A DNA stretch of 64,000 nt from a virus. Taxonomy: Duplodnaviria > Heunggongvirae > Uroviricota > Caudoviricetes. The notes under the pieces were generated by a model, which was given only the letters and a program-made list of their open reading frames with translations, ran no database searches and was not told the DNA's origin. The position numbers were made by a program, and so were the translations under genes. This document shows positions 23,095 to 48,714 of the stretch, piece by piece. Every line of letters begins with the position of its first letter. Position 1 is the stretch's first letter. The stretch is taken from positions 64,001-128,000 of the IMG/VR virus record IMGVR_UViG_3300037088_000797. One strand, 5' to 3'.

Positions 23095-23952
23095 TTATTT
23101 TAGTCCTTGTATTAATGTATCACCATATTTAATACCATCATATCCTAACTTCATTGCCTTTTCAGCAATGGCTTTGTTTTTAAGATTAATTGATGGCATA
23201 TCATATTGTTCACTTATTTTTTCAAAATTTATGTGCGGAAACCAAATTTTCGCCATTATATCGAGTGGTTCTTGACCGTCTTTATACGTAACACCCATCG
23301 AGTGCAGATCAAGGAGATTGTCGAATTCGATTTCATACTTATCAAAACCTTCAACGGGTTTTAACATGAAAAAATTTCCAACCACTGAATTTTCTTTTAT
23401 TGGTTCTTTTCTGTAACCAATGACAGTTTTATTATTTGTACCAGTATCACCAGAAGGCTTAAGTGCTAAATTATCTTCTTCAAGTGTGTTAAGAAATTGA
23501 TTTTCATCACCACCATAATAATTTATTGTATCCTGCATTTCAACTTCTTCCAAACCACGAGATTGCTCATATTCGTAAATGTCTTGTATTTTATTTAACA
23601 TTCTACAAGCATCTTTTTCATTCATTGCAAGTTTTACTGCTTTAAGTGGTACATTATCAATTAATGCTTTTAAATATCTGTGATGACCGTCACAAATATT
23701 CATTTTTTCTCCCGCAATCCAAATTGGATTAGTGTCATCAATATTAACTTTTTCTACTTCATCAGAAAATGTAACGCCTTGTGAAACATTTATATCGTCA
23801 TCTTCTTTAGGATTAAGCTCTATTAATTCATATTCAATACCTTCTTCATCAAGTTTCTGAAGTACAGTTTCATAAGGCATTGAAATTTGTGGAAGATATG
23901 ATGGCTTATATTTCATTGTTATCATAATACTGATTGATTTTTTAATTCGCAA
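23095..23952 (-). CDS. ParB/Sulfiredoxin-like domain protein plus a second unknown domain (start uncertain)
   Basis: NPIWIAGEKMNICDGHHRYLKALID..PLKAV ParB/Srx signature; C-terminal KLGYDGIKYGD. Confidence 0.6.
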   Translation of the reverse strand: MRIKKSISIMITMKYKPSYLPQISMPYETVLQKLDEEGIEYELIELNPKEDDDINVSQGVTFSDEVEKVNIDDTNPIWIAGEKMNICDGHHRYLKALIDNVPLKAVKLAMNEKDACRMLNKIQDIYEYEQSRGLEEVEMQDTINYYGGDENQFLNTLEEDNLALKPSGDTGTNNKTVIGYRKEPIKENSVVGNFFMLKPVEGFDKYEIEFDNLLDLHSMGVTYKDGQEPLDIMAKIWFPHINFEKISEQYDMPSINLKNKAIAEKAMKLGYDGIKYGDTLIQGLK

Positions 23953-24659
23953 AATAATGCTTCCTCAAAATATTTATCTACTGAATATGGTATTTTAATT
24001 AATTTAAATCCATTATTTACGGCATATTTTATTTTAATGAAATCATATTTTTTTCTTAATAATAATGAATCTTTGCCACCAAAAAAAGGTATTACTTTAT
24101 TGTGTTGTATACCATCATATTCAATAAGTATTTTATGGTCTGGTAAATAAAAATCATAAAATAATGGTTTTGAATCACCAACTAATTCTTTGAATGTTAT
24201 TTCTCGTTCAAAATTAATGTTATTATTCAATAAAAATTTGGCAACTTTTCTCTCACCTAATGATTCACGACATAAGCGACATCCATTTCCATTTAAATGA
24301 GAATGTGGTGTTTGTTGAAATTTACCATGTTTTTTGCAAATAACAATAATTTTATTTTCATATCCATCATATTTAACTAATGAATAATCATATGTGTTAC
24401 TATGTATTTTATTTGCTTTTTCAATAAATTCTTCATTTGTGAATCTATTTTCTTTCGAAGTTTTTTCGTATTGGCACATTTTACAACCATATCCTGTCAA
24501 ATGATCATTTGGTCTCTGTAAAAATTCACCATGTTTAGGACAAATAATTACCACTTTTGATTTACTATGAATGTAGTCAACATTAGAATAATCATATTTA
24601 TCACCATGTTTTTTTTGTGCATTGATGACAAAATTTTTTTTATTTGAACTTATTCCCAT
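23922..24659 (-). CDS. free-standing endonuclease: Zn-binding CPKHG repeats + Vsr/DUF559-like PD-(D/E)XK domain
   Basis: Two YDYS.V.Y......V.IIC.KHG.F.Q.P..HL.G.GC..C repeats; LFYDFYLPDHKILIEYDGIQH. Confidence 0.75.
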   Translation of the reverse strand: MGISSNKKNFVINAQKKHGDKYDYSNVDYIHSKSKVVIICPKHGEFLQRPNDHLTGYGCKMCQYEKTSKENRFTNEEFIEKANKIHSNTYDYSLVKYDGYENKIIVICKKHGKFQQTPHSHLNGNGCRLCRESLGERKVAKFLLNNNINFEREITFKELVGDSKPLFYDFYLPDHKILIEYDGIQHNKVIPFFGGKDSLLLRKKYDFIKIKYAVNNGFKLIKIPYSVDKYFEEALFCELKNQSVL

Positions 24660-24692: not shown

Positions 24693-25886
24693 TTAAATTT
24701 TTTGAAATGGTATTGTTTTTCTACCTGCCATTTTATAAGCATAGTATCTATGATATCCATCCTTAAGTAAATTATTCTTATCTAAAACAACTGGTGGTAA
24801 TTCACTTCCTGTTTTTAATTTCTTGATCATTGTTTCCACTCTTAATTTATCTAAAGGTATTTTACCACTATTATGAACACTAATTATTTCGTTGGGATTA
24901 TTGGTGTCTACCAATATAAGTTCACCATTTATCTTAATGTTATTTATATCAATATTTTGTATTGAATTTTGAATTTCTTCATTAATGTTTTGTTTTATTT
25001 CTTTGTCGATAAAATCCCAATTATTCAATGGAATCCAACCGTATTTTGTATTAATTTCCAGTTCATCTACTGGTATTTCTCTGGTTGTTACCCATTCATA
25101 TGAATCATTTTTCTTATATTTGGGTGACAATTGAAAATCATCTGTCTTTTTTGTTCTAAGTACAATACCTCTGGCTGACCCACCTTTCATATCAGCATAA
25201 TATTTTGCGACATTAGGTTTACCAGTAAATGAAATATATGGTTCATTATTATTTGCTGCATTGATCTTCATACTACCAGTACGTTGTATGTAATACCCAG
25301 CACCATCATATGTGCCATGATAAACATAATTATCTTCAGCAATAAAGTTTTGAATTTCTTCAGCAACTATATTGGTGACTTCATCCAATGTCAACTCACC
25401 CTTATTTGCAATATAAATATTGAATTTAATACCTTCTGGTAATGAATTTCTTATGCCTTCGTATGTGGTAATATCAGTATCCCTGTCATCATAAACGTTA
25501 ATCTCTCTTAGGTCTGGTAATTTAGTTGCATAATCAAGAATTTTTTGACCCTTATTTCTTGCACCACGTTGCATATCAAGTTTATCAACTTTAATATGGT
25601 TAACATCCAGTACTGCTTGTACTAAGGGACGTAATTTTTCTTGTCGTGAGGTTAATACAATAGTATATGTGGCAGGTGTTGAAACATCTTTATTTAAAAT
25701 GCTTAATACCTTTGGAAATGGTTTAATGTCGAAAACATCTAAATCCAAACTTTCGGGTCTACCCCACCAGCCTTGATATTTAAATGGCACACCCTTCTTG
25801 TATGACCAGAAACGTTGTCCTGTTTCTTTCTCAGGAGTATTAATAAGTGTTGCATCAAAATCAAATGCGCATAATCTTGTTATCAT
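24693..25886 (-). CDS. three-domain protein: HAD phosphatase (Swiss-Army-Knife RNA-repair type) + ADP-ribosyltransferase-like + ParB/Srx
   Basis: CAFDFDATL..TP...GWWGRPESL...VLTSR...INVYDDR (HAD); YVYHGT...ISFT..PNVAKYYA...GIVL...EWV (ART fold); LPPVVLDKNNLLKDGYHRYYAY (ParB/Srx). Confidence 0.7.
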   Translation of the reverse strand: MITRLCAFDFDATLINTPEKETGQRFWSYKKGVPFKYQGWWGRPESLDLDVFDIKPFPKVLSILNKDVSTPATYTIVLTSRQEKLRPLVQAVLDVNHIKVDKLDMQRGARNKGQKILDYATKLPDLREINVYDDRDTDITTYEGIRNSLPEGIKFNIYIANKGELTLDEVTNIVAEEIQNFIAEDNYVYHGTYDGAGYYIQRTGSMKINAANNNEPYISFTGKPNVAKYYADMKGGSARGIVLRTKKTDDFQLSPKYKKNDSYEWVTTREIPVDELEINTKYGWIPLNNWDFIDKEIKQNINEEIQNSIQNIDINNIKINGELILVDTNNPNEIISVHNSGKIPLDKLRVETMIKKLKTGSELPPVVLDKNNLLKDGYHRYYAYKMAGRKTIPFQKI

Positions 25887-25909: not shown

Positions 25910-26419
25910 CTAACTTTTTGTAAAATTATCATAATACATTACTTCATCTTCTTTTATCATTGTAACCCAACCATCTTTTTTATCAACTTTATGATGAATG
26001 TACTTAACTAAAACATCATGTCCCACAAGATGTGCTTTTTTTGGTGTATCGTCACCATCACCAGTAAAATGCGCTCTTCCGTATTCAAAATGTTGTTCAA
26101 GAAAACGATATATTTCAAGTGGAGTAATCCATATATATCTATATCCTGTGATAAACACCCAATATTTTGCTTTAGTCACTGATAATGCGGATAATTTACC
26201 GTTCATTTCAACCTCAATCACCAAATTACCAGTATGTTTTGATTTGTAATCATTTTTAACTTCAACACCAGCATTTATTTCTGGTATAAAAATATCCCAA
26301 TCACTATTTGCTTTACCTATATCATCAATATATGACTTAGGATACTTGTGCTGTAAAATTTTCAATATTTCTTCTTCTCCAATATTACCAGCTTTTTTTG
26401 ATTCTTTATATTCGCTCAT
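25910..26419 (-). CDS. PD-(D/E)XK restriction-endonuclease-like protein
   Basis: GNIGEEEI...DWDIFI...GVEVKND...TGNLVIE. Confidence 0.65.
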   Translation of the reverse strand: MSEYKESKKAGNIGEEEILKILQHKYPKSYIDDIGKANSDWDIFIPEINAGVEVKNDYKSKHTGNLVIEVEMNGKLSALSVTKAKYWVFITGYRYIWITPLEIYRFLEQHFEYGRAHFTGDGDDTPKKAHLVGHDVLVKYIHHKVDKKDGWVTMIKEDEVMYYDNFTKS

Positions 26420-26426
26420 ATTTCAG

Positions 26427-26810
26427 TTAATTATATTCTACTTCAGTTACTTTTCCTGTTAATGATAATGGTCTTCTAATTTTTTCCCAATTTTTCAAAT
26501 TATTTGACATCATTGGCTTACCACCATTTGCTCTATTTACTGCAAGTGTTACATGTGCTTTTGGATTAAGTGTTTTAAAGCCAGATACTCCAACTGCAAT
26601 CACTTTATCATCCATTGCAATGTCTTCAACTGCCAGTCTTACTGGTAATCCAAGATATTTTTGATAATCTGGGTCGATTTCACCTGTATTAATAGTCATG
26701 TGATGCGCAATAATCTCCCAGCCTTCAGGTATTACGTTTTTAAATCTGTTAATTAATCTTTTTCTTGATTGTTCATCAAGTACAACAGCACTATATGAAA
26801 TGTTGTCCAT
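26427..26810 (-). CDS. 2H phosphoesterase, fungal tRNA-ligase CPDase-like (2',3'-cyclic phosphodiesterase)
   Basis: YSAVVLD...AHHMTI and AHVTLAV (two HxT motifs), ending GGKP..SN.L. Confidence 0.75.
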   Translation of the reverse strand: MDNISYSAVVLDEQSRKRLINRFKNVIPEGWEIIAHHMTINTGEIDPDYQKYLGLPVRLAVEDIAMDDKVIAVGVSGFKTLNPKAHVTLAVNRANGGKPMMSNNLKNWEKIRRPLSLTGKVTEVEYN

Positions 26811-26812
26811 GT

Positions 26813-29800
26813 TTATTCGTTTAATAGTTCTCTGTCAGTTAATGCCCAGAGTAATTCTTTTTTAAGATGTTCATCGTGTGTAAGGTCTTCATAATTATTC
26901 TGAAAAAATTCAAGAACACTTGCAGTTGAAGGGTCTTTATAACCATCTTGATTCCATATATCGTATTTTTCAACAAAGAATGGTATTCCTACTTCTTGTC
27001 CGTTTATATTCCAGATATCTTTTTTTTCAGGTTCTAATGTATCATATGAAAATTCTTTTAACAAACCATCATCATTAAGATTTAATATCTCACCATCTTT
27101 ACCTCTGCGACCTTTCCACGTATAAACCAATTCATCACCCTTCAATATTCTTTCTTTTTCAAATGGTTTAATGTACTTTTTACCTTCACCTTTTTTAACG
27201 TATGCAATTGTAATGTGTGCGTGGTAGTCAGGAAACTTAGTGGTATTTGGCAGTTCTCTCATAATACCATTAACCTTTGCAAGTAAATCTGAATTAACGT
27301 CAAATTTAACCACATCAAAATCGGGGTTTTCAAACACTGAAATACCAGATATTTTAACTTCAATTGGTTTCAACGGCATCTTTGATTTGTATAATTCAAA
27401 TACCTGTTCTGGTGTAACTTCATCATGAAATCCATATAATATTGTAAGATGTGGTTCTTTTTCAACACCATAGTCATCGCCCTTTATGTAAAGATCGTCC
27501 AAATCAACAACTGATGTGATCTTGCTCCAAATAGGTACTTCGAGAAATAACATAAGACAACCATACTCAATTCTTTCGGATGTTTCTTCTTTAATTTCTT
27601 TTGCATTTGCAAATCCAACAGTATTTCTTGCATTTTGTAATGCATCATATTTTTCTATTGTCGTTAATCTTACGTGTGAACCATTAATTGGATGATTGTA
27701 ATCCACCCTGCCATTATCAATAAATTCTACAAGTTGTTCTTCAGTCATATTTGTTGTCCAAATATCGCCTCTAAATTTATTATCCAAGGGACGCATTTCA
27801 ATTAAATATGTATTTGTTTCTTTATCAAAAACAATATTATTCAATACAACCATCATCATACCGCTTGGACTACCAAAATATAATTTTCGATTACTATATT
27901 TTCTCCAACCTAAACCTTCAGCGTGTTCTTCTTTAATCATCGGCTTTTCTTGCTTTGCCAAAGATAGTAAATCTTCTTTATTATTCATAGCATTATTTGA
28001 ATAAACCTTTAATAACAATGATTTTTGCATATCACCAATTGCTTTGCCCTGTAAACCAAGTTGCATTAAGTCATTGCCATTTATTGCTAATTCATTGACA
28101 CTCTTTGGATATTTGCCTTGCAGTAGTTCTTGTGCTGCAGTTTTAATAACATTAGGTAATATCTGGCTCTGTAATGATGTAGGAGATATTACGTACATGT
28201 TATGAGCAACTGAACGTGCTTCAACTAAATTAGTTGCTTCTCTGCTTTCAAATGCTATTTGAAGTGCCTTAATTTCTCTATAAGCATTTTCATCACCCTT
28301 TAAATTAGTTTTATAAAACTCTGCTGGGTCGTTAACAAGATTTTTACTTAATAAATAAACAAATTCGCCTATTGTTCTTACTTTATCGAAAGGTTCTTTT
28401 GTGTTTCTGAAGTCATAATATAATCCTTTGCCGAATATTTCTTTAAGTAAACCAGTTTCGTCAAGTAATATTGCACCTGTCAAAATATTGCCCTTTTTGA
28501 CAATTTTATCAAATTCTGTCAAAATTCTTTCGGGAGCAATTTCTTTAACTCTTTCAGCATTTTCCTGAATCATTTTCATTGTTTCTGGTTCAATAGTAAA
28601 ACCGAAACGACTTGCAAACTGTACAGCACGCAACATTCTAAGTGGGTCATCACTGAATGCCTGTGGATTAACAACCTTGATGACCTTATTCTTTAAGTCT
28701 TCCTGACCACCGAAAGGGTCAACTATATTACCATCAATATCTTTTGCAATTGCATTAATCGTAAAGTCCCTACGTTCCAAATCCTTTTCTATTGGCAATG
28801 CATGATCAGACTTAACATCAAATCCCTGATGACCACCTTCACCTGTTGGTGTTTCAGTACGTGGGATTGCAATATCAATATCTTCAGTTGCTCCTTTTGG
28901 TTTGAATTTAAGCACACCGAATGATTTACCAACAGCATTCACAGCACCATACTTACCAAGAATCTGTTCGAGTTGTTCAAATGGTATGCCTGTAATAAGA
29001 ATATCCAAGTCTTTGGATTCTTTGCCAAGAATTTCATCCCTGACAGCACCGCCAACTGAATATATTTTACCACCTGCTTCTTCAACATCTTCTCTGAATG
29101 GAAGATAGTTTAATCCCATTATTTGCCCCTCATATATCATTTTGCGCATTCTTTTGTTTGAGTATAAAAAATTATCCAAATCTTCTTTATCGGTAGGTAA
29201 TTGAAAATTCTGATGTTTACTATGTTCTTCATCACCAATATCGGTATAAATATATGATTCTCCCCCTAATGAACTTGAATAAGCATCAAGCAATACTTCT
29301 TTCAGTCTTTCTTCAGTTGGTGCATGAATATCTAATATATTTCCAATCTCTCCCTTATTAAATATTATTCTTGTATAACCATCATTATATGCCCTGTTGT
29401 ATATTTCATTTTGACTTTTTATGTCTGGATATAATCGCACTAAATAAGCCAAATGTACATCAGATTCAATAAATTTATTGTCAGGTGTTATCCAACCAGT
29501 ATGATCATAATTAGGAACTCTGATATTCCCTTCTGTTAATACCTCATTTATAGATTCATTTGCTGGTTCATGTTTTTGTTTACTCTTTTCTGGTTTGAAA
29601 GTTTTTACAAATGTATCATAAATTTTCTCAGCAATAGCACGATTTGCTCCATTTGGTATGTTTTTTCTGAACATCATTTCAATTTTGTTCGCAATCTCGT
29701 GAGCGTCATCATATTCATAACCATAATGTCTTATAATAAAACTTTCTGTTCTTTCATGTAATAGTATTGCTTCAAAGTCTGCTGGTTTGATCATAAACAC

Positions 29801-32800
29801 ATCATCAATCCAATATTCATTTTCTCCAATATGACTTGCATATTTCTGTTCGATTTTTGGAAGATCAGCATCAACCCAATGGTTACCACCATCGACCCAT
29901 TCAATAAATCCACTATCACGAACCTGATCACCATTAACGGCAAACACACTATATGTGTGATCTCCATCCTGATAATTTCTTATAAATTTCTTATCAAGAT
30001 GATGTGTAGTAAGGTCTTGCTGAATATCTTTTTCAAATTCAGGAAAATTTTCTTCATTTAAGTCCCAGAAATCATATGCAACTTCTTCATCAAGATCATT
30101 AAAGTCATCTGGTGATTTATCAGGCATTATTGGCACTTTGCTACCATATTTATTACGAATGTGTTGTTCTATATCGCTTGGTTTATAATCTAATAATTTT
30201 CCGATCTCACGTGCTTCTTCTGGAGTTTTATCTTTAAGATAACCTTCATTGTTCTTTGCAAAATCATATAATAAATATGCTTTAACCTTATCAGTATATA
30301 TAATTGCCATCATTGTTAGACGTGAAGTCATTCTTGTGGGAATTACACCAATTTTTCTTTTTTCAAGTTTTTGAGCAATTTCTTTATTAATTTCAAGAAA
30401 AGCAACGCCTCTTTTTCCATTTAAAATAGACTTAATTGCAGCAATATCGCTACGCATTTCTTTTGCATTAACTTCTTCGTTAACTTCTTCTTTTAATGGC
30501 TTAATGTCCACAGCATTAATGTCACCCCAATTACATTGAGCACTTGTGTTACCCAAGCCACCTAATCTACATTTCTTTTTAATTTCAACAGTACTGCTAC
30601 CTTCCATAGAAGATAATTTTCTTTCTTCATTCAATTCTTCTGATGATATATCAACAGCATTGATTGTTGCCACTTCTTTATTAAAAAAGGCAACTATTTT
30701 ATGATAACCATCAATTAAAATCTTATCAGAAGTACTAATCACAAAATAATCATTTAAATGCTTTTCAATATTCTCTTCATAGTATTTTATTGTTTCTAAT
30801 TGTTCTTCTTTCGTATTATCAATACTATCTTCAATTTCGCCATTATTATAAAACAAATAAATGTCCTTAACGCTTAATTTTTTTAATTCAAAATATGTGT
30901 TATTATATTCATCCGTTGTAATAAAATTCCATAACATTTCATGTTTATCGGGCATTTCAGGATAAACCTCAGATAGTTTAATTTTATTTACATTTTGTAC
31001 TTCTTCAGACATCAAATATTCATCTTTAGTAGCATCGTCAACATGATTATATTCTAAATCTTCTTCAATATTTGTATTTGCGTTTATATCGTTCTGAATT
31101 GAAGGAGAATTATCAATATTATTATGTGCAGGAAAATTATCTTGACCCATTGCATTATCGGTTGAAAATTTTGCGCTACCATCTTCAGGAAGATAAATAA
31201 TATCTTGTGCCATCATTGTTGGTTCATGTGCTTTATAACCACCAACATCAAAAAATTTCAACACCCCGTTTTGATATCCCAAGTTACCTGCATTACCATA
31301 GTCATCTGACTTAATACCATATTTACGTAATTCTTCTTGTATGTTAATTAAATCAATTAAATAGTCATATGTTGATTCTCTGTCTTCAGCAGAAATATTT
31401 AATTCTGGTTTATCACTTATTAAGTGTTTTGCAACTTCACCTACTTCTGCAGATGATTTTTTACGCATCATTAACAAGATATCAATATAATTCAATCCTG
31501 CAGGTTCAATTGTGTCAATTGTTTTCATGTATATGAAAAATTCTGCAGTAGGTTTGTCCTTAACGTTTTCCTGAAGAATTGCAAAGAAAGCGAGTTGTTT
31601 TACAGTATCAATTATTTTATAAAATGAGAATATTTTAGCAATATACTTTGGCTGTTCATTTATTAATTTACCAGCAGCATCTGCTTCGCTCTTATCTGCA
31701 GTTATTTTCAATATTACATTATCGTTAATTGTGAATGCATGACCATTTGAACCACCATCCATGTATACTGGTTCTGCCCCAAGATTTATTTTTTTTGCAA
31801 AAGCACTTGCCAATTCAGTTGCATAGTTTTTATCTTCTAATGTAAACGGTTTAACTGTTTGTCTTGAAGGATTTGTTGCTTCATTAATTTCATATTCTTC
31901 TTTAAGAAGCGGGTCTCTGTCATAATATTTATTTTCAATAAGCCATTCTTGAAGCGTCAATAAATTATTATAAAATTTCTTTTTCTGTGGAACACGTTTC
32001 AATACTTCTTTAAGATTGTTTACCACATTATGAAATTCATCAAGAACATACGGTGCGCTCGGTAATTTCTTTGGATATTTATCTCTGGCAAGTACAAATG
32101 AAATAAAACCTTCATTAATGACACCACCACCATCACCAACACCATAAGGCATTTGCGCCCACATACCTCTACGAGTATCGATTGCATCTTGTGGTGGCAT
32201 ATCTGAAAGTATATCATCATTACCATCAGCACAATTAAACATTTCATACATCTGATATTGTTGCTTTCTTTTTGGACTATAATGAGTATTATAAACTTCA
32301 TCAGTTAATCCATAATCACTAAGAACAATTGTTGGTTGACCATCACGAAAAACCTCACCATAGGTACTTGCTCTACCCAAATCACCTGCAGATATCGAAT
32401 AATTTGACATTATGTCTTGTAAATCAGTGACAAATTCATTATCGTTTAATAATTTTTCAATATCTACATCCAAGCCAAATATATTTCCACCACCTTTAAT
32501 TCTATTTTCATGATTTCTAAGAAAATAAAACAATTCATTTAAACTTGGAATACCTGTTAATTGTTTAATTCTTGCTTCGCTTACTTTTTTTGCTTTCTCC
32601 GCAACAATCCAACTACCATTATTATCGGATTCTAAAACCTTTGTAACAATATAATGTGTGTCTGGATATCTACCAATATTTATTTCTGCGTCATTCTGAG
32701 CAACACCCTTGGCGTTCTTAGCTAATTTGAATACCTTTGTGCCATCAATATCGTAAACAATTCTACCACTACCAGCACCAAGTTTCAGAAGGTTTTGATC

Positions 32801-32878
32801 GGCATATATAATTTTCTGTCTAAAGGACTGTATTTCTTCAAATTGGTCTAAGAAATTTAAGAATTCATCGTAAGTCAT
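26813..32878 (-). CDS. 2021-aa polyvalent protein: kinase, kinase, ParB/Srx, zincin-like, CCA-adding nucleotidyltransferase, Acb1-like 2H phosphoesterase and several unknown modules
   Basis: Kinase 1 LGAGSGRIVY..KVFKLAK..DL..DYG; kinase 2 GGSNGHAF..LKIT..D.GNAGN..FFDVG; ParB LIDGYHK; LLHERTE; CCA GGAVRDEILG..KDLDI, DLERRDFTINA, DDPLRMLRA; 2H EPHLTILYG / YHAHITIAY. Confidence 0.85.
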   Translation of the reverse strand: MTYDEFLNFLDQFEEIQSFRQKIIYADQNLLKLGAGSGRIVYDIDGTKVFKLAKNAKGVAQNDAEINIGRYPDTHYIVTKVLESDNNGSWIVAEKAKKVSEARIKQLTGIPSLNELFYFLRNHENRIKGGGNIFGLDVDIEKLLNDNEFVTDLQDIMSNYSISAGDLGRASTYGEVFRDGQPTIVLSDYGLTDEVYNTHYSPKRKQQYQMYEMFNCADGNDDILSDMPPQDAIDTRRGMWAQMPYGVGDGGGVINEGFISFVLARDKYPKKLPSAPYVLDEFHNVVNNLKEVLKRVPQKKKFYNNLLTLQEWLIENKYYDRDPLLKEEYEINEATNPSRQTVKPFTLEDKNYATELASAFAKKINLGAEPVYMDGGSNGHAFTINDNVILKITADKSEADAAGKLINEQPKYIAKIFSFYKIIDTVKQLAFFAILQENVKDKPTAEFFIYMKTIDTIEPAGLNYIDILLMMRKKSSAEVGEVAKHLISDKPELNISAEDRESTYDYLIDLINIQEELRKYGIKSDDYGNAGNLGYQNGVLKFFDVGGYKAHEPTMMAQDIIYLPEDGSAKFSTDNAMGQDNFPAHNNIDNSPSIQNDINANTNIEEDLEYNHVDDATKDEYLMSEEVQNVNKIKLSEVYPEMPDKHEMLWNFITTDEYNNTYFELKKLSVKDIYLFYNNGEIEDSIDNTKEEQLETIKYYEENIEKHLNDYFVISTSDKILIDGYHKIVAFFNKEVATINAVDISSEELNEERKLSSMEGSSTVEIKKKCRLGGLGNTSAQCNWGDINAVDIKPLKEEVNEEVNAKEMRSDIAAIKSILNGKRGVAFLEINKEIAQKLEKRKIGVIPTRMTSRLTMMAIIYTDKVKAYLLYDFAKNNEGYLKDKTPEEAREIGKLLDYKPSDIEQHIRNKYGSKVPIMPDKSPDDFNDLDEEVAYDFWDLNEENFPEFEKDIQQDLTTHHLDKKFIRNYQDGDHTYSVFAVNGDQVRDSGFIEWVDGGNHWVDADLPKIEQKYASHIGENEYWIDDVFMIKPADFEAILLHERTESFIIRHYGYEYDDAHEIANKIEMMFRKNIPNGANRAIAEKIYDTFVKTFKPEKSKQKHEPANESINEVLTEGNIRVPNYDHTGWITPDNKFIESDVHLAYLVRLYPDIKSQNEIYNRAYNDGYTRIIFNKGEIGNILDIHAPTEERLKEVLLDAYSSSLGGESYIYTDIGDEEHSKHQNFQLPTDKEDLDNFLYSNKRMRKMIYEGQIMGLNYLPFREDVEEAGGKIYSVGGAVRDEILGKESKDLDILITGIPFEQLEQILGKYGAVNAVGKSFGVLKFKPKGATEDIDIAIPRTETPTGEGGHQGFDVKSDHALPIEKDLERRDFTINAIAKDIDGNIVDPFGGQEDLKNKVIKVVNPQAFSDDPLRMLRAVQFASRFGFTIEPETMKMIQENAERVKEIAPERILTEFDKIVKKGNILTGAILLDETGLLKEIFGKGLYYDFRNTKEPFDKVRTIGEFVYLLSKNLVNDPAEFYKTNLKGDENAYREIKALQIAFESREATNLVEARSVAHNMYVISPTSLQSQILPNVIKTAAQELLQGKYPKSVNELAINGNDLMQLGLQGKAIGDMQKSLLLKVYSNNAMNNKEDLLSLAKQEKPMIKEEHAEGLGWRKYSNRKLYFGSPSGMMMVVLNNIVFDKETNTYLIEMRPLDNKFRGDIWTTNMTEEQLVEFIDNGRVDYNHPINGSHVRLTTIEKYDALQNARNTVGFANAKEIKEETSERIEYGCLMLFLEVPIWSKITSVVDLDDLYIKGDDYGVEKEPHLTILYGFHDEVTPEQVFELYKSKMPLKPIEVKISGISVFENPDFDVVKFDVNSDLLAKVNGIMRELPNTTKFPDYHAHITIAYVKKGEGKKYIKPFEKERILKGDELVYTWKGRRGKDGEILNLNDDGLLKEFSYDTLEPEKKDIWNINGQEVGIPFFVEKYDIWNQDGYKDPSTASVLEFFQNNYEDLTHDEHLKKELLWALTDRELLNE

Positions 32879-32901: not shown

Positions 32902-32910
32902 TATAAATAC
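32902..32910 (-). promoter_or_regulatory. putative late promoter motif GTATTTATA upstream of the polyprotein
   Basis: 24 nt upstream of ATG 32878, just downstream of a terminator. Confidence 0.6.
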
Positions 32911-32922
32911 AAAGTTAACACG

Positions 32923-32951
32923 AAAAAAAAGCGCAATTAGAGTTGCGCTTT
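32923..32951 (-). terminator. intrinsic terminator overlapping the stop codon of 32937..33623
   Basis: Stem aaagcgcaa/ttgcgcttt followed by U8 on the minus strand. Confidence 0.7.
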
Positions 32952-34847: not shown

Positions 34848-35618
34848 TTATTCGTCTTTTTTGAATGCCATTGTAATATATTCTATCAAATGTGGTACAA
34901 TATCTAAGAATTTCATTTCTTCAACATCATACCAACCATAGTTTGTGTTTTCTTCATTTAACTTAATATCTGTTGGTTCGCCATCATAACGACAAGCAAA
35001 TATGTGTTCAATACTATCTGGATTCTTTTGAATACTGAAGGACTTAATAAACTTACTGATATCCAAACCAGTTTCTTCTTTAATCTCTCTTTTAACTGCT
35101 TGCTCTGGAGTTTCATCTTTTTCAATCCCACCGCCAACTAATGCCCATTTACTTGGTTGCCATATCTTGGGGTCTGAACTTCTTTTAAGTAACAGTATTT
35201 TATTATCACCGTCTACAATTACTGCACAAGCATTTTTTTTCAGGTCTTTCTTTTCTTCATTCAGTCTGGGTGTCTGGTATGGTTTTAATTCTGAATTAGG
35301 ATTTGTTGCCATATCCTGTTTAACATTCTTTGTCATTTCAACACCTGCCCTGTCACTTGCCAATGTTGCTTCAATAAATTGTCTCATAGGATTACCGCCA
35401 GCAAGAGCATACTGCATCTTATCACCTGTTTGTGAATTAAAATAATCAAAGAAATTCTTCAGTCTTTTCATTGCCTGATAGGTTATAGCACCATTTTTAA
35501 GAAGATAATTAGCACGTTTAATGCCTTCTCCATCTGAACTCGATGCTTTTGCTATCTCAATACCTTTAAGTATGTCTGGAGGTATCCTATATTGTTTATT
35601 GTACAATTCTTGGTTCAT
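34848..35618 (-). CDS. two-domain protein: helical N-domain + Nudix hydrolase
   Basis: Complete Nudix box GGIEKDETPEQAVKREIKEETGL; N-domain G.KRA..L......T....KR...FF....YAL.GG resembles a module of phage head-associated proteins. Confidence 0.8.
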   Translation of the reverse strand: MNQELYNKQYRIPPDILKGIEIAKASSSDGEGIKRANYLLKNGAITYQAMKRLKNFFDYFNSQTGDKMQYALAGGNPMRQFIEATLASDRAGVEMTKNVKQDMATNPNSELKPYQTPRLNEEKKDLKKNACAVIVDGDNKILLLKRSSDPKIWQPSKWALVGGGIEKDETPEQAVKREIKEETGLDISKFIKSFSIQKNPDSIEHIFACRYDGEPTDIKLNEENTNYGWYDVEEMKFLDIVPHLIEYITMAFKKDE

Positions 35619-36315
35619 ATGTTTCTAAAATTTTCTCAATTTGATTTATTTGATCAAATCTAATTCTAAGTAAATTATAATTATTTGATTTGGCATATTC
35701 ATTTTTTATATTGTCATTAATTTTCTGTAAATTAAATTTATTTAAACCACCGAAATGATTATTCGGTGAAAAATGTTGTGCTCCATCAAATTCAATTAAC
35801 ACGTTGTTTTCAGGAAGAAAATAATCAAACGCAAGTTTATTAACGTTTTTACAATCATCAAACTTTTTTTCTCTTTCAAATTTTATTGAATTTTTCAATA
35901 AAAAATCGGCAATTCTTTTTTCGCCAATTGATTCATTACAACATGGACAACCACTTCCTTTTAAATGTGTGTTTGGTTTTTGAAAAAATGTTCCGTGTAC
36001 AAGACAAATAATATTAATATATTTATGCGCATCTATGTAATTAACCTCTGAATAATCATATTTTTCTCCATGAATTTCTTTTGCTTTAGAAATAAAATAT
36101 TCGGTATTTTTTCTTAATTTCATATCACCACATATTGGACAACCATGACCAGCTAAATGTGTATTTACTCGTTGTATAAATTCTCCGTGTTTAGGACATG
36201 TAATTACTATATTATCATGTGTTAATATAAAATCAACCAGATCATATAAATAATAATAATTATGAACAATATTTGCTTTTTTAATAAACATATCAATTGT
36301 TAATCTCTTACTCAT
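35596..36315 (-). CDS. free-standing endonuclease (CPKHG repeats + Vsr/DUF559-like domain), paralogue of 23922..24659
   Basis: ITCPKHGEFIQR..THLAGHGCPIC; LAFDYFLPENNVLIEFDGAQH. Confidence 0.75.
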   Translation of the reverse strand: MSKRLTIDMFIKKANIVHNYYYLYDLVDFILTHDNIVITCPKHGEFIQRVNTHLAGHGCPICGDMKLRKNTEYFISKAKEIHGEKYDYSEVNYIDAHKYINIICLVHGTFFQKPNTHLKGSGCPCCNESIGEKRIADFLLKNSIKFEREKKFDDCKNVNKLAFDYFLPENNVLIEFDGAQHFSPNNHFGGLNKFNLQKINDNIKNEYAKSNNYNLLRIRFDQINQIEKILETYEPRIVQ

Positions 36316-46440: not shown

Positions 46441-48645
46441 TTATGGCGCAATTATTGTATCACCACCCCAAATACCACCATTTCTACATTGAACAACCAA
46501 TGTTGCTCCGCTTGTTACAAATCTCCAACTACCATCTGTATTTTTATTACCTAAATATAAATAATTACATGTACCATTTACAATTTCAGTAGTACCACTT
46601 ATTACTACTCTTTTTGTATCAAATTCACCATAAATTAATGAACAATCACTGCAGTTTGCTATATGTAACTTATTTGAACCTTTTTCAAAATATCCTGCTT
46701 GTCGTCCAATTGCAACATTTGTGTTACCAGTAGTACCAGTATAAAGTGCTTGATGACCTATTGCTGTATTATTACAACCAATTATATTGTTATATAATGT
46801 AGCACAACCAATTGCCATATTAGTATTACCACTTATATTATTATACATTGAAGACGGACCGATTGAAGTGTTTTGAGAACCAATAGTATTACAATATAAT
46901 GCAGAAGTACCATATGCAAGATTATAACAACCAGTTGTATTACGATTAAGTGATACAGGACCGACTCCGATGTTATCACCACCAGTTGTGTTATTTCTAA
47001 GTACACCATTACCAACTGCGGTGTTTTCAGGACCACAACTATTATTACCAAGTGCACCATTTCCAATTGCAATATTATTATCTCCACAAATATTACAATA
47101 AAGTGCTTCACAACCCATTACAATATTACTAATACCAATTGTATTATTATACATTGCAAAAAATCCAATTGCAATATTATCATTACCAGTAGTATTATTT
47201 GCAAGTGTTGCATATCCATTGGCTATATTGTGACAACCTGTTGTATTTACACCAAGTGAAAATGCACCAACACCCACATTATTACAACCTATTGTATTTC
47301 CAGCAAGTGTTTGACTTCCAATTGCAAGATTATAATTACCGCTTTTATTTGTATATAATGCACATTCACCTAAAGCAATGTTTTGAGTGCCACCCGTATT
47401 CCAATAAAGTGCTTGATAACCATTTGCAACGTTATTACTACCACACATATCATGATAAAGTGCCTGATAACCAATTGCAACGTTATTACTACCGCCAGAA
47501 TTACTGTAAAGGGTAGCGTAACCAATTCCAACGTTATTATTAGCTCCTGCATTACTATAAAGAGCACAAGCACCATTTGCAATATTACCACATCCACTTG
47601 TATTAAATGCAAGTGCTTGAAAACCATTTGCAATATTATCACAACCAGTTAAATTATTTTGAAGCGCAGAACTTCCATATGCTACGTTACCGCAACCACT
47701 TGTATTACCATTAAGAGCATATGTACCAAATGCAATATTTTCGCAACCAGTTAAATTACTTTGAAGTGTAGCAGTACCAAAACCAATGTTTGTACTTCCA
47801 CTTGTGTTATTTTGAAGTGCATTATATCCAAAAGCTATATTATAACTACCAACTAAATTATTTTGAAGTACATTATATCCAAAAGCTATATTATAACTAC
47901 CACATATATTACTTGATAATACTCGATTACCACTTGCTATATTATGATTACCATTTCTATTTGAAAAAAGTGCACATAATCCATTAGCAATATTGCCAGT
48001 ACCACCAGTATTATTATAAAGTGCACAATTACCATGTGCAATATTATCACTACCAATTGAACCATTTAAAAGTGCTGATTTACCTATAGCAATATTACAA
48101 CTACTTCCAGAACTATTACCAAGTGCATTAGTACCCATTGCAATATTATCAGAACCTATAATGTTTTGATTAAGTGCCAAGAAACCAATTCCAATATTAT
48201 CACAACCAGTTAAATTATTTTGAAGTGCATGGTCGCCAATTCCGATATTAAAACATCCTGTATTATTATTATACATTGTTTGAAAACCGATTGCAATATT
48301 ATCACAACCTGAAGATGACATATTTCTACCAGCACTAACGCCATATAAAGTATTACGTATAAATGTATATCCGCTTGCAACTGTGTCACAACCTGCAACA
48401 GTATTACCACATACTAAATTTGACCAACCAATACCACCACCGCTTGGATTTTCCCATGTACTATTACCTAAAGAATCTGATGTTAAAATTTTTCCCGCAC
48501 CAGCATTTGATAATATTGATAATGTTGCACCACTTCTTATTTCAAAGTCGCCATAAATGCGTGTGCTACCAGATAAATTAAGCGTTTCACCAGAAAACTG
48601 TTCAAATTTATTACTATTTAGATTGGGTTTTGTATCAACTGCCAT
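46441..48645 (-). CDS. beta-solenoid adhesin/tail fibre with 17-aa NIAIGxxALxxNxxG repeats (YadA-head/Hep_Hag-like)
   Basis: About 30 tandem 17-aa repeats; C-terminal NTDGSWRF motif; late motif at 48676-48684. Confidence 0.75.
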   Translation of the reverse strand: MAVDTKPNLNSNKFEQFSGETLNLSGSTRIYGDFEIRSGATLSILSNAGAGKILTSDSLGNSTWENPSGGGIGWSNLVCGNTVAGCDTVASGYTFIRNTLYGVSAGRNMSSSGCDNIAIGFQTMYNNNTGCFNIGIGDHALQNNLTGCDNIGIGFLALNQNIIGSDNIAMGTNALGNSSGSSCNIAIGKSALLNGSIGSDNIAHGNCALYNNTGGTGNIANGLCALFSNRNGNHNIASGNRVLSSNICGSYNIAFGYNVLQNNLVGSYNIAFGYNALQNNTSGSTNIGFGTATLQSNLTGCENIAFGTYALNGNTSGCGNVAYGSSALQNNLTGCDNIANGFQALAFNTSGCGNIANGACALYSNAGANNNVGIGYATLYSNSGGSNNVAIGYQALYHDMCGSNNVANGYQALYWNTGGTQNIALGECALYTNKSGNYNLAIGSQTLAGNTIGCNNVGVGAFSLGVNTTGCHNIANGYATLANNTTGNDNIAIGFFAMYNNTIGISNIVMGCEALYCNICGDNNIAIGNGALGNNSCGPENTAVGNGVLRNNTTGGDNIGVGPVSLNRNTTGCYNLAYGTSALYCNTIGSQNTSIGPSSMYNNISGNTNMAIGCATLYNNIIGCNNTAIGHQALYTGTTGNTNVAIGRQAGYFEKGSNKLHIANCSDCSLIYGEFDTKRVVISGTTEIVNGTCNYLYLGNKNTDGSWRFVTSGATLVVQCRNGGIWGGDTIIAP
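47807..47902. repeat. near-perfect 51-nt-period tandem duplication (one 17-aa solenoid turn)
   Basis: 47807-47851 vs 47858-47902: 45 nt with 1 mismatch. Confidence 0.85.
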
Positions 48646-48714
48646 TTGTTTTTAATTTTAATTTTTGTTATTAATTATAAATACTCAAATTAATATCAAT
48701 ACTTTTCATTTTTA

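Follow-up and report, generated by a model that had tools for sequence, protein, structure and literature searches.

The window analysed here is a 64,000-nucleotide stretch (positions 64,001 to 128,000) of the IMG/VR record IMGVR_UViG_3300037088_000797, which derives from an uncultivated peat phage with a genome of about 330 kb and probably a member of the Bacteroidota as its host. On its minus strand lies P0001, a gene for a megaprotein that a sequence-only reading had described as a single uninterrupted frame of about a dozen modules. The frame and its ATG start were borne out, and the module borders proposed in that reading match those in Table 1 to within about 20 residues.

Table 1. Modules of P0001, neighbouring genes and regulatory elements in the window
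Feature	Residues	Position	Strand	Characteristics
Whole gene P0001		26813..32878	-	one ORF, 2021 aa, ATG start
K1, minimal protein-kinase-like	1-205	32264..32878	-	GxGSGR Gly loop, Lys51, Glu65, Asp166, Asp188-Tyr-Gly
H, acidic disordered stretch, then conserved helical module	206-335	31874..32263	-	in 105/119 relatives
K2, minimal kinase	336-560	31199..31873	-	Lys391, Glu398, Asp526, Asn532, Asp544
L, acidic linker, predicted disordered	561-625	31004..31198	-	in 99/119 relatives
PB, rare insert	626-750	30629..31003	-	motif ILIDGYHK; 3 close homologues only
C2, two-Cys motif	751-800	30479..30628	-	KKKCRLGGLGNTSxxCNxGD; in 118/119 relatives
GL, NleE/DUF2023-like alpha/beta domain	801-935	30074..30478	-	pLDDT ~96
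ZN, phage-specific domain	938-1115	29534..30067	-	invariant H-E-x-x-E...H...E; pLDDT ~90-96
GW, W..P..H motif	1120-1250	29129..29521	-	~100 family hits by jackhmmer; pLDDT 50-70
Class II CCA-adding tRNA nucleotidyltransferase, without HD domain	1251-1650	27929..29128	-	PF01743, PF12627
U, rare module	1651-1762	27593..27928	-	3 homologues only
2H phosphoesterase, LigT/Acb1-like	1763-1942	27053..27592	-	two invariant HxT motifs
CT, conserved C-terminal module	1945-2021	26816..27046	-	in 78/119 relatives
Next gene, minimal 2H cyclic phosphodiesterase, fungal tRNA-ligase CPD type		26427..26810	-	127 aa; motifs HHMT, AHVT
HAD phosphatase gene, "Swiss-army-knife RNA repair" family		24693..25886	-	DxDxT motif; C-terminal DGYHR motif
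Promoter-like GTATTTATA		32902..32910	-	31 nt upstream of ATG
Hairpin then T-run, between upstream gene and P0001		32923..32951	-	from sequence reading; a hairpin scan places the hairpin at 32928-32951

Both kinases of the earlier reading hold at the level of the fold, and both have conserved Lys, Glu and two Asp residues. The K1 profile has SteC kinase as its best sequence match (6.8e-4), followed by PKC iota (0.03), with the DYG aligning on DFG, and the AF2 model of K1 reaches a pLDDT of about 75-93. K2 (pLDDT 90-96) stops shortly past its DFG equivalent and finds kinase folds exclusively in a Foldseek search of the PDB; it aligns with PKR at Z 10.9 (150 aa, rmsd 4.0), and further structural matches are Stk1, DAPK1, residues 2-151 of CDK2 and APH(2'') (Z 8.7). 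Tandem-kinase proteins align over residues 30-560 of P0001. The atlas clusters Pkinase and APH match K1; K2 is similar to viral clusters bearing the labels Pkinase and Phage_T7_kinase, and its atlas features point to a Kinase-PolyVal cluster (0.94). K1 and K2 look like the minimal kinases of effectors and phages (SteC, T7 gp0.7, Kinase-PolyVal), short domains with Gly loop, Lys, Glu, catalytic Asp and a DFG-like motif that end soon after it. Unlike these, neither K1 nor K2 is matched by any Pfam kinase model, the Kinase-PolyVal model missing 70 of their relatives as well, and K1 defines its own large family (3019 clusters, signature KNxKGxAQNE), annotated in cultured phages only as hypothetical. 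The helical module expected between the kinases is conserved in relatives, its helices (256-315, pLDDT about 80) following a disordered stretch (190-255), and K2 is present in duplicate in 56 relatives.

The class II CCA enzyme, also part of the earlier reading, is confirmed by Pfam (PF01743 at 4.7e-23, PF12627 at 2.9e-15), by NCBIfam NF009814, matched over 14-393 of 396, and by intact motifs: GGAVRD, DLD, RRD and DDPLRMLR are near-invariant across 113 sequences. It further matches phrog_2244 at 1.6e-68. The sole tRNA gene in the 178-kb record, a tRNA-Met, is followed by CAA and not by an encoded CCA.

The phosphoesterase near the C-terminus had been called Acb1-like. Its 2H domain stands, on the HxT motifs and a PF13563 score of 28.2 bits (cut-off 27), whereas the Acb1 assignment is not confirmed: the Acb1 family PF23474 scores 24.2 bits, under the cut-off of 27. 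Both models match all 36 members of the module's family, and the best PDB match of its profile is Acb1 itself (7t26, 3.3e-3), which leaves the subfamily, LigT or Acb1, ambiguous by sequence. The module has the fold and paired HxT motifs of Acb1, the anti-CBASS nuclease T4 gp57B, but it is fused behind a CCA enzyme and scores higher with the LigT-like PF13563. Since the 2H and CPD types both occur within single proteins of the family, and the Acb1 and LigT scores are nearly equal, the fused 2H domain may instead degrade signalling nucleotides.

The remaining modules are more heterogeneous. Conservation across relatives extends to the acidic linker (motifs EDGSAKFSTDN and EDLEYNH, pLDDT <50), C2 and CT, all three of which the earlier reading had listed; C2 directly follows K2 in most of them, an adjacency kept across many architectures, and CT, which has no atlas hit, in some sits between CCA and 2H. 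The "GxLLxY" module (801-915) of the earlier reading is real, and its identity can be revised: GL aligns with NleE (4r29_A) at Z 11.1 (110 aa, rmsd 2.6) and with the DUF2023 structure 2guk at Z 10.2, the next hit falling to Z 5.0, and Foldseek and AFDB agree. The modelled likeness to NleE, a cysteine methyltransferase effector of EPEC, is one of fold, which does not establish function; identity is just 14-18%, and only NleE residues 84-220 are matched. Two other assignments were not upheld. The supposed ParB/Srx domain, PB, has one short motif, no Pfam hit and a pLDDT <50; the supposed zincin, ZN, carries HExxE instead of HExxH, has no PDB hit by sequence and matches ERAP1, lugdulysin and PprI only weakly in fold (Z 4.0-4.4). 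ZN also matches stand-alone viral proteins of 118-127 aa (TM 0.75-0.79). GW matches neither Pfam nor PDB, and U has no hit in the atlas.

Downstream, the CPD gene matches PF08302 (tRNA_lig_CPD) at 24.2 bits (cut-off 23); of 80 loci, 58 keep it in synteny and about 15 have it fused to the megaprotein. The HAD gene, syntenic in 50 of the 80, matches PF10307 at 3.8e-5 and 24.0 bits, slightly under the cut-off of 25.6, and its C-terminus has only the short motif in common with PB (E 0.96). The order pol-U5-Nudix-U2b-U2-U1-[gene]-CPD-(N2)-HAD is kept in about 58 of 80 IMG/VR loci. No MuF, portal or head gene adjoins P0001, its neighbours being replication, Nudix and RNA-repair genes, and the locus contains no ligase and no P-loop kinase; an Rnl2-type RNA ligase, which counts in favour of a repair function, is encoded in the same genome about 32 kb ahead of the window start. 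Thirteen operon starts, those of virion-structural and baseplate operons among them, have the GTATTTATA motif 22-40 nt upstream, but the helicase/polymerase operon does not.

Comparison of module presence in 119 relatives reveals an invariant scaffold, K1-H-K2(+C2)...CCA...CT, around which the remaining modules come, go or change places, as the sequence-only reading had proposed checking; in some cases the gene is divided into two. Direct fusions recur in several orders (K1-CCA-CPD; K2-C2..K1-CCA; K1-K2-C2-CCA; CPD-2H-K1-K2-C2). In distant phages K1 is a stand-alone kinase in clusters of the form CCA...K1-PNK/CPD...Rnl1 ligase. Among 47 non-redundant loci with a stand-alone K1 gene, a gene joining an AAA_33 kinase to tRNA_lig_CPD lies nearby in 22 (median 526 nt downstream), an Rnl1 ligase in 20 and a CCA enzyme in 12, all on the same strand, against a chance expectation of about 6% for a single-copy gene placed randomly (16-kb window in a 250-kb genome). 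About half of the 47 have no repair gene nearby.

We hold with moderate confidence that the megaprotein would be a fused tRNA-repair hub bearing polyvalent-style accessory cassettes. This seems the most likely reading, ahead of a random string of weapons, because its core enzymes are elsewhere separate neighbouring genes of tRNA-repair clusters. The constant core, as predicted from sequence, would comprise K1, K2 with its two-Cys tail, the complete CCA enzyme and the 2H phosphoesterase; the protein is no mere assortment of unconnected effectors, having K1, the CCA enzyme and a cyclic phosphodiesterase as an invariant core. The recurrent core fusions, the separate neighbours with PNK-CPD and Rnl1, and the downstream CPD and HAD genes place the CCA enzyme at the centre of an RNA-repair theme, and the scaffold, these downstream genes and the distant clusters are the novel elements. 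Going by the known activities of the enzyme families, whose domains are present and intact here, we propose that host ribotoxins cut tRNAs to leave 2',3'-cyclic phosphate ends, that the 2H and CPD domains would open these rings, after which the HAD enzyme would take off the leftover phosphate, and that the CCA domain would then restore the 3' CCA, maturing the phage tRNA-Met as well. The kinases might spend ATP on a partner, be it an RNA end, a tRNA-bound factor or a host translation or defence protein. Around this core the phage lineage exchanges accessory cassettes (NleE-like, HExxE, GW, PB and U here; GNAT, ART-PolyVal and ParBc in relatives).

Intact domains, the constancy of the scaffold against variable cassettes, synteny, recurrent fusions, the K1 clusters and the lone tRNA gene without CCA all count for such a hub. 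Counting against it, the kinases have a protein-kinase fold, whereas known RNA 5'-kinases are P-loop enzymes; a P-loop PNK stands beside K1 in the distant clusters, so K1 is not simply an RNA kinase. The stand-alone K1 loci devoid of repair genes, the missing ligase at the locus and the near-equal Acb1 score of the 2H domain weigh on the same side, as do the ART-PolyVal and GNAT domains of relatives, which are typical of injected effectors, and a promoter-like motif common to structural genes, with which late synthesis and packaging fit better than early repair.

The foremost alternative is a classical polyvalent protein, whose independent effectors would be late products, packaged in the capsid, injected alongside the DNA and perhaps cleaved; we regard it as possible, if rather unlikely. 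Each module would then answer a different host defence: the 2H domain would act against CBASS as an Acb1-like nuclease, host proteins would be the targets of the kinases and the NleE-like domain, and the CCA enzyme would be extra cargo. Much in P0001 recalls the polyvalent proteins of phages and conjugative elements described by Iyer et al. 2017 (PMC5512222): one giant chain of many unrelated enzymatic domains, a mosaic of 13 modules in which cassettes are gained, lost and reordered, minimal kinases that lack a C-lobe together with a 2H domain, and ART-PolyVal, GNAT, ParBc and Acb1 Pfam domains in relatives. The atlas placement of K2, Acb1 as the closest solved structure to the 2H profile and the gene's own GTATTTATA element, common to virion genes, point the same way. 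However, P0001 has an invariant K1/K2/CCA core at a fixed genomic locus, outside any MuF, portal or T4SS context and among replication, Nudix and RNA-repair genes; it lacks the Pfam Kinase-PolyVal match and the zincin hub motif HExxH, its Acb1 score is under the cut-off, and a CCA-adding enzyme is mentioned nowhere in that survey (PMC5512222). The linkage of K1, CCA and CPD, kept both as fusions and as neighbours of PNK and Rnl1, argues for cooperation over independence. Of the multi-effector counter-defence cassette first proposed, then, the multi-module architecture, the shuffling and the polyvalent hallmark domains survive, and the independence of unrelated effectors does not; likewise the CCA enzyme, whose fusion that reading did not recognise, is by its repair neighbours and fusions no oddity in a cassette.

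A second alternative, which we judge improbable, combines housekeeping with host takeover and involves no repair: the CCA enzyme would mature CCA-less phage tRNAs or tRNA-like RNAs, the kinases would reprogramme host proteins like T7 gp0.7, and the fusion would be an accident of genome compaction. It accommodates the tRNA-Met, the frequency of stand-alone CCA enzymes in large phages (PMC7824862) and the resemblance of K2 to the viral Pkinase and Phage_T7_kinase clusters, yet it leaves unexplained the conserved CPD and HAD neighbours, the K1-CCA-CPD fusions in varied orders, and PNK-CPD and Rnl1 beside stand-alone K1.

The proposed repair hub has parallels in known systems. As in T4 tRNA repair (Pnkp and Rnl1) and kindred healing-and-sealing cassettes, stand-alone K1 genes adjoin a P-loop kinase-phosphoesterase and an Rnl1 ligase, and the DxDxT HAD phosphatase of the P0001 locus, which also has a cyclic phosphodiesterase, belongs to the superfamily of the T4 Pnkp phosphatase; unlike T4, the locus has no ligase or P-loop kinase, its healing enzyme is of the 2H/CPD and not the Pnkp type, and it has a CCA enzyme and domains of protein-kinase fold in addition. 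The fungal and plant tRNA ligase Trl1 (LIG-KIN-CPD) and the "Swiss army knife" RNA-repair proteins, to whose families (PF08302 and PF10307) the downstream CPD and HAD genes match, also unite several end-processing enzymes in one chain, and distant K1 loci have Trl1-like KIN(AAA_33)-CPD fusions; P0001 differs in being viral, in its protein-kinase folds, in having no ligase domain and in its central CCA enzyme. The E. coli CCA addition/repair enzyme offers a comparable union of class II head and neck with a phosphate-clearing activity, its HD domain being capable of removing cyclic as well as terminal phosphates at the tRNA 3' end. P0001 in contrast has no HD domain, its full-length profile match is of the Bacillus type, and its phosphoesterase is a 2H domain helped by separate CPD and HAD enzymes.

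An artefact, whether a chimeric assembly or read-through across separate genes, deserves next to no credence as the source of the ORF and is already contradicted, for although same-sample contigs have loose ends at a few sites within the gene and about 20 related loci encode the protein as two ORFs, the N part stopping before CCA, long relatives (1111-3537 aa, n=204) come from independent assemblies, more than 100 of them collinear and full-length, and occupy a fixed locus in uncultivated phages of 325-363 kb. Contig L009 (362,763 bp, rated 100% complete) carries the same 13 modules in identical order, and in peat metagenomes contigs from three runs of three studies tile the entire gene at an identity of at least 99% and without indels. 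The two-ORF forms themselves recur in independent samples and are thus natural gene fissions.

To halt phages, bacteria often cleave or block tRNAs of their own; phages are known to respond with spare tRNAs and with the Pnkp/Rnl1 repair pair of T4. The 2021-aa megaprotein (P0001) is most economically read as a fused tRNA-repair hub with exchangeable accessory domains, a reading towards which we lean without holding it firmly. In such a hub the 2H and CPD (Trl1-type cyclic phosphodiesterase) domains would open cyclic phosphates, the HAD enzyme would take the phosphate off and the CCA enzyme would restore the tRNA acceptor end, with an Rnl2 ligase supplied from elsewhere in the genome. K1 and K2 would be two minimal kinases, predicted to use ATP, and the accessory domains would have been grafted onto this repair core in the style of polyvalent proteins.

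The CCA module contains both the Pol-beta head (PF01743, 4.7e-23, 82.3 bits against a cut-off of 23) and the RNA-binding neck (PF12627, 2.9e-15, 56.2 bits against a cut-off of 22) of class II CCA-adding tRNA nucleotidyltransferases, and it matches phrog_2244 (1.6e-68). Positions 14-393 of the 396 in NF009814, the Bacillus-type CCA equivalog, align to it; in NCBIfam the CCA equivalog scores best, at 167.8 below the equivalog cut-off of 290, with pcnB lower (8e-32). The module has the catalytic and templating motifs GGAVRD, DLD, RRD (RRDFTINA) and DDPLRMLR, each of them near-invariant among 113 family members. The sequence-only reading had named this module a class II CCA nucleotidyltransferase, and these profiles and motifs bear the name out: judged by its sequence, it is a class II CCA-adding tRNA nucleotidyltransferase with intact motifs and predicted activity. 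The single tRNA gene of the whole record, a tRNA-Met (CAT) outside the window, has CAA as its 3' flank and no encoded CCA.

The 2H module carries two HxT motifs, EPHLT and AHIT, which are invariant in 36 sequences. Scanned alone, it reaches 28.2 bits with the LigT-like family PF13563 (cut-off 27) and 24.2 bits with the Acb1 family PF23474 (below the cut-off of 27); both families are matched by 36 of 36 2H family members, and the top solved-structure sequence match is Acb1 (3.3e-3). Because the two HxT motifs are invariant and PF13563 lies above its cut-off, membership of the 2H phosphoesterase superfamily is certain as far as sequence can assign it. The earlier label of an Acb1-like phosphoesterase holds for the superfamily; at family level the signs point both ways, PF13563 outscoring PF23474 and Acb1 being the top structure match. 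The role of the fused 2H may be Acb1-like or may concern ADP-ribose cyclic phosphate. In relatives, the fused 2H and the CPD type are found together in single proteins, and the two are therefore not redundant.

Directly downstream of the megaprotein gene lies the CPD gene, whose 127-aa product has the motifs HHMT and AHVT and matches the fungal tRNA-ligase CPD family above cut-off. The gene after next encodes a 397-aa HAD protein with a DxDxT motif, just below the cut-off of the "Swiss army knife" RNA-repair HAD family. With CCA and 2H in the megaprotein and the CPD and HAD genes directly after it, a nucleotidyltransferase and end-healing enzymes are thus encoded together. The order pol-U5-Nudix-U2b-U2-U1-[gene]-CPD-(N2)-HAD-N5-N6-glycosyltransferase is kept in about 58 of 80 loci, and in about 15 loci CPD is fused onto the C-terminus of the megaprotein. 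No RNA ligase gene was found at the megaprotein locus, and no Rnl1 gene in the phage's own record, which has an Rnl2-type ligase gene about 32 kb before the window start. AAA_33 P-loop kinases occur in only three of five complete relatives, far from the locus. Between CPD and HAD sits a gene for a 169-aa protein (N2; PHROG 13596) without a Pfam match, in which a D...EVK pattern suggests a PD-(D/E)xK nuclease. On either side of the locus stands an HNH homing-endonuclease gene (phrog_559; 1.9e-55 and 4.1e-60); only 12 of 80 relatives have these two genes, which are therefore mobile insertions.

A wider association of K1 with RNA repair is seen in distant phages, where K1 is a stand-alone gene product of about 215 aa. 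The next gene encodes an AAA_33 P-loop kinase fused to tRNA_lig_CPD (Pfam), which is the Trl1 healing pair (PNK-CPD); some 3 kb further downstream comes an Rnl1 RNA ligase gene, and upstream there is one for a CCA enzyme. When stand-alone K1 was used as the seed of a second scan, 47 non-redundant loci were obtained, with PNK-CPD in 22 (median gap 526 nt), Rnl1 in 20 and CCA in 12, all of these repair genes on the same strand; by chance, a single-copy gene placed anywhere in a 250-kb genome would fall within such a 16-kb stretch in about 6% of cases, a rough estimate rather than a computed control. A K1 profile search of 1.84 billion representatives returned 3019 clusters, of which 1900 reach 1e-10 or better, and the architectures include K1-CCA-CPD, K2-C2..K1-CCA, K1-K2-C2-CCA, CPD-2H-K1-K2-C2 and tandem K1 arrays. 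Since K1, CCA and CPD are fused in several orders and are neighbours as separate genes, this is classical evidence of joint working, and the three would be expected to act together. Cultivable phages with a stand-alone K1 include the Xanthomonas phages Xoo-sp13 and XacN1 and the Alishewanella phage Slickus01; in cultured phages its sole annotation is "hypothetical". Elsewhere K1 forms the C-terminus of a 962-aa protein with a weak NTP_transf_2 match, and it is met as three to four tandem copies alone (in fetched locus L076 and proteins P0143, P0156 and P0222). The N-terminal half of P0176, a 400-aa K1 fusion, had no PDB match.

That the megaprotein holds two kinases, as first proposed, is upheld at the level of the fold. 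Sequence evidence for K1 is weak: its profile matches SteC (6.8e-4) and PKC iota (0.03), the DYG of K1 falling on DFG; K2 gave no usable match in the PDB profile search, and matches to PBP2x and xylanase in the same searches of K2, ZN and GW were spurious. P0001 matched neither Kinase-PolyVal (PF18762) nor Pkinase (PF00069) at E up to 1, a Pfam scan of 36 K1 and 36 K2 relatives returned no kinase family, and the sole link to Kinase-PolyVal is a language-model lead for K2. In an hhalign comparison of K1 with K2, nothing beyond the stretch of Gly loop and Lys could be paired (67% probability). Whole-protein scans (Pfam, NCBIfam, PHROG, PADLOC) named only the CCA, 2H and K1 (phrog_4301) regions, PADLOC itself returning nothing. 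The AlphaFold model of aa 1-560, built from 46 sequences, has a mean pLDDT of 81.4 (K1 about 75-93, K2 90-96), and every top match in the Foldseek PDB search has a kinase fold. K2 (aa 350-552) superposes on PKR with Z 10.9 (150 aa, rmsd 4.0), as well as on Stk1, DAPK1, CDK2 residues 2-151 and APH(2''), so that K2 comprises the N-lobe through the DFG segment only. Among Swiss-Prot models the best matches are tandem-kinase proteins (RSK, JAK, GCN2), whose alignment spans residues 30-560; K1 is therefore kinase-like too. Atlas clusters labelled Pkinase, APH and Phage_T7_kinase match both domains, K1 matching those of Pkinase and APH. The residues K51 (ATP-binding Lys), E65 (helix-C Glu), D166 (catalytic) and D188 (metal-binding) of K1, and K391, E398, D526, N532 and D544 of K2, are invariant or near-invariant. 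On the models, both modules are thus predicted to adopt minimal protein-kinase-like folds.

The module order K1-H-K2-L-PB-C2-GL-ZN-GW-CCA-U-2H-CT is one arrangement among many. The two-Cys module C2 nearly always directly follows K2, and because the two so regularly adjoin they form one unit; in this megaprotein L and PB sit between them. Relatives carry extra domains (GNAT, ART-PolyVal PF18760, ParBc PF02195 and tRNA_lig_CPD), and in about 20 of 80 IMG/VR loci a split form recurs in independent samples, the N-terminal ORF running from K1 through ZN, GL or GW and the C-terminal one starting at CCA. An orthologue search had been proposed to see whether modules are gained, lost or shuffled, and the variable cassettes, permutations and split forms among relatives show that they are.

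Positions of features (window coordinates unless stated; aa, residues of the megaprotein) and occurrence (that of modules from coverage mapping and a phmmer search with each module, 119 relatives)
Feature	Position	Strand	Occurrence
Window in source contig	64001-128000		
Megaprotein ORF	26813..32878	-	
K1			103/119
H			105/119
K2	aa 350-552		105/119; two copies in 56
L			99/119
PB	aa 626-750		2/119
C2			118/119
GL	aa 801-915		68/119
ZN (as modelled)	aa 941-1100		35/119
GW	aa 1120-1250		6/119 by phmmer; ~100 domain matches by jackhmmer, including ORFs of fetched IMG/VR loci
CCA	aa 1251-1650		112/119
U			2/119
2H	aa 1763-1942		46/119
CT			78/119
CPD gene	26427..26810		
169-aa gene (N2)	25910-26419	-	~20/80 related loci
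HAD phosphatase gene	24693-25886	-	
HNH genes	23922-24659; 35596-36315	-	
GTATTTATA before megaprotein gene	32902-32910		
Other GTATTTATA operon starts, e.g.	9492, 13999, 18793, 24678, 33646, 34836, 36972, 48676, 54006, 55812, 59302		
Helicase/polymerase operon start	42827		
Two adjacent large genes	46441-52809	-	
Divergence of peat-sample contigs	30232-30279; 31107; 32023-32042		
Rnl2-type ligase gene (whole record)	31397-31903		
tRNA-Met gene (whole record)	C1:136662-136734	complement	
K1 proteins, locus L076	7700-10588		

This mosaicism raises the alternative that the megaprotein is purely a polyvalent protein, an injected string of multiple effectors. Like the polyvalent proteins (Iyer 2017), for which 2-15 unrelated conflict-type domains are the criterion, it is made of 13 modules with mosaic cassettes and permutations. 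Their hallmark hubs are an HExxH zincin, ART-PolyVal, ParB and MuF. The megaprotein has an HExxE ZN module, only a motif in PB and no MuF; its relatives do have PF18760, PF02195 and GNAT. Polyvalent proteins are linked to head-packaging and DNA-transfer genes, but this gene is not: no portal, MuF or terminase gene stands beside it, the neighbours being DNA polymerase, helicase, Nudix, HNH endonucleases, CPD and HAD. The injected string accounts for the cassettes and for the promoter class, yet it leaves the conserved K1-CCA-CPD-PNK-Rnl1 linkage unexplained. The multi-effector counter-defence cassette of the sequence-only reading therefore keeps its mosaic part, with that linkage and the lack of adjoining head genes against it, and we consider an injected effector string possible but rather unlikely.

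The promoter class refers to the element GTATTTATA, which, with a hairpin and T-run, precedes the megaprotein gene 31 nt before the ATG. Thirteen operon starts in the window, those of virion-structural and baseplate operons included, have it on the coding strand at a distance of 22-40 nt upstream. The helicase/polymerase operon is without it and has a TATATTTG box, TAnnTTTG-like, which resembles the Bacteroidota -7 element, so that there look to be two promoter classes in the window. Taken by itself, the motif upstream of the megaprotein gene hints at middle or late transcription, which would fit packaging. Two adjacent large genes in the window, of 734 and 1364 aa, contain repeated virion-structural/tail-spike-like units (phrog_23837, 5-8 stretches each).

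A housekeeping function for the megaprotein seems improbable to us, and an artefact can be dismissed as very improbable indeed. The source is an IMG/VR viral contig of 178,514 bp, rated 54% complete and with a G+C content of about 31%, and the ORF listing and translation give a single open frame with an ATG start. A protein search found 204 relatives of 1111-3537 aa on contigs up to 366 kb; complete relatives measure 325-363 kb, one with direct terminal repeats. Peat metagenomes of at least four studies contain near-identical DNA, and contigs of three runs, from three studies, together cover the gene from end to end with at least 99% identity and 0 insertions or deletions. Locus L009, from a complete 362,763-bp genome, has the identical 13 modules in identical order. 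Given this order and the tiling contigs, the suspicion of an assembly chimera fails, and the single uninterrupted ORF is real. Scans for sigma-70 promoters and terminators within the ORF gave chance-level matches only. In the cultured phages of the phage collection the fusion is absent (megablast found nothing, tblastn only stand-alone CCA or K1 genes), and cluster look-ups gave no informative name. Some peat-sample contigs diverge within the gene, and these branch points suggest co-occurring strains with other module arrangements; a contig joint skipping 1743 bases was disregarded, one side having only 20 letters.

The polyvalent-protein survey (PMC5512222) does not mention a CCA enzyme, and the jumbo-phage survey has CCA enzymes only as stand-alone repair genes; a full-text literature search found no account of the megaprotein fusion, nor of any protein with a kinase fold among phage repair genes. 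The locus and the thousands of linked K1-family genes suggest a broader, unstudied repair toolkit, in which a minimal kinase and a phosphatase would act jointly with cyclic phosphodiesterases and a CCA-adding enzyme, as separate genes or as fused megaproteins of 1100-3200 residues. Such a toolkit offers a concrete, testable function for the many phage kinases now labelled "hypothetical". Some apparent polyvalent proteins would then have an ordered functional core. A more speculative proposal, which we regard as doubtful, is that the K1 family (more than 3000 clusters, each with no annotation but "hypothetical") is a previously unrecognised protein-kinase-fold part of tRNA repair that physically partners the CCA enzyme, acting for instance as a gatekeeper or as a tRNA-end kinase dependent on ATP; with 2H, CPD and HAD it might allow ligase-independent rebuilding of tRNA 3' ends lost to host acceptor-end ribotoxins, delivered here as one megaprotein.

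The middle of the protein is less clearly assigned. The model of aa 561-1250, from a 110-row fragment alignment, has a mean pLDDT of 65; it is confident only at GL and ZN and unreliable over L, PB, C2 and GW. For what was first called a GxLLxY module, that label gives way to fold matches with NleE (Z 11.1 over 110 aa, rmsd 2.6) and with 2guk, a DUF2023 protein (Z 10.2), the next match having Z 5.0. The name "zincin-like" for ZN is not borne out: the module has an invariant H-E-R-x-E-S, that is HExxE and then AHEIAN, an H-E-x-x-E...H...E pattern and not HExxH, and its fold matches to ERAP1, lugdulysin and PprI are weak (Z 4.0-4.4). A PDB sequence search with ZN found no match, and neither an AFDB entry named "Peptidase C39" (1.5e-4) nor zincin (Z about 4) was accepted as an assignment; separate viral proteins some 120 aa long do match ZN. 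In PB, called ParB/Srx, the motif ILIDGYHK is all there is of the expected box (GxxRxxA / DGHHR), with no Pfam match (ParBc included), a model pLDDT below 50 and three close homologues, too few for a profile. GW is frequent in the family and had no match in searches against known families and the PDB, and the atlas feature search gave no usable match for U and CT. The C-terminal 60 or so residues of the HAD phosphatase end in LLKDGYHRYYAYKMAG, a ParB/Srx-like box resembling that of PB, a likeness without significance in BLAST (E 0.96). Candidates for new activities are the NleE-like domain, the HExxE domain, GW, the two-Cys tail and CT.
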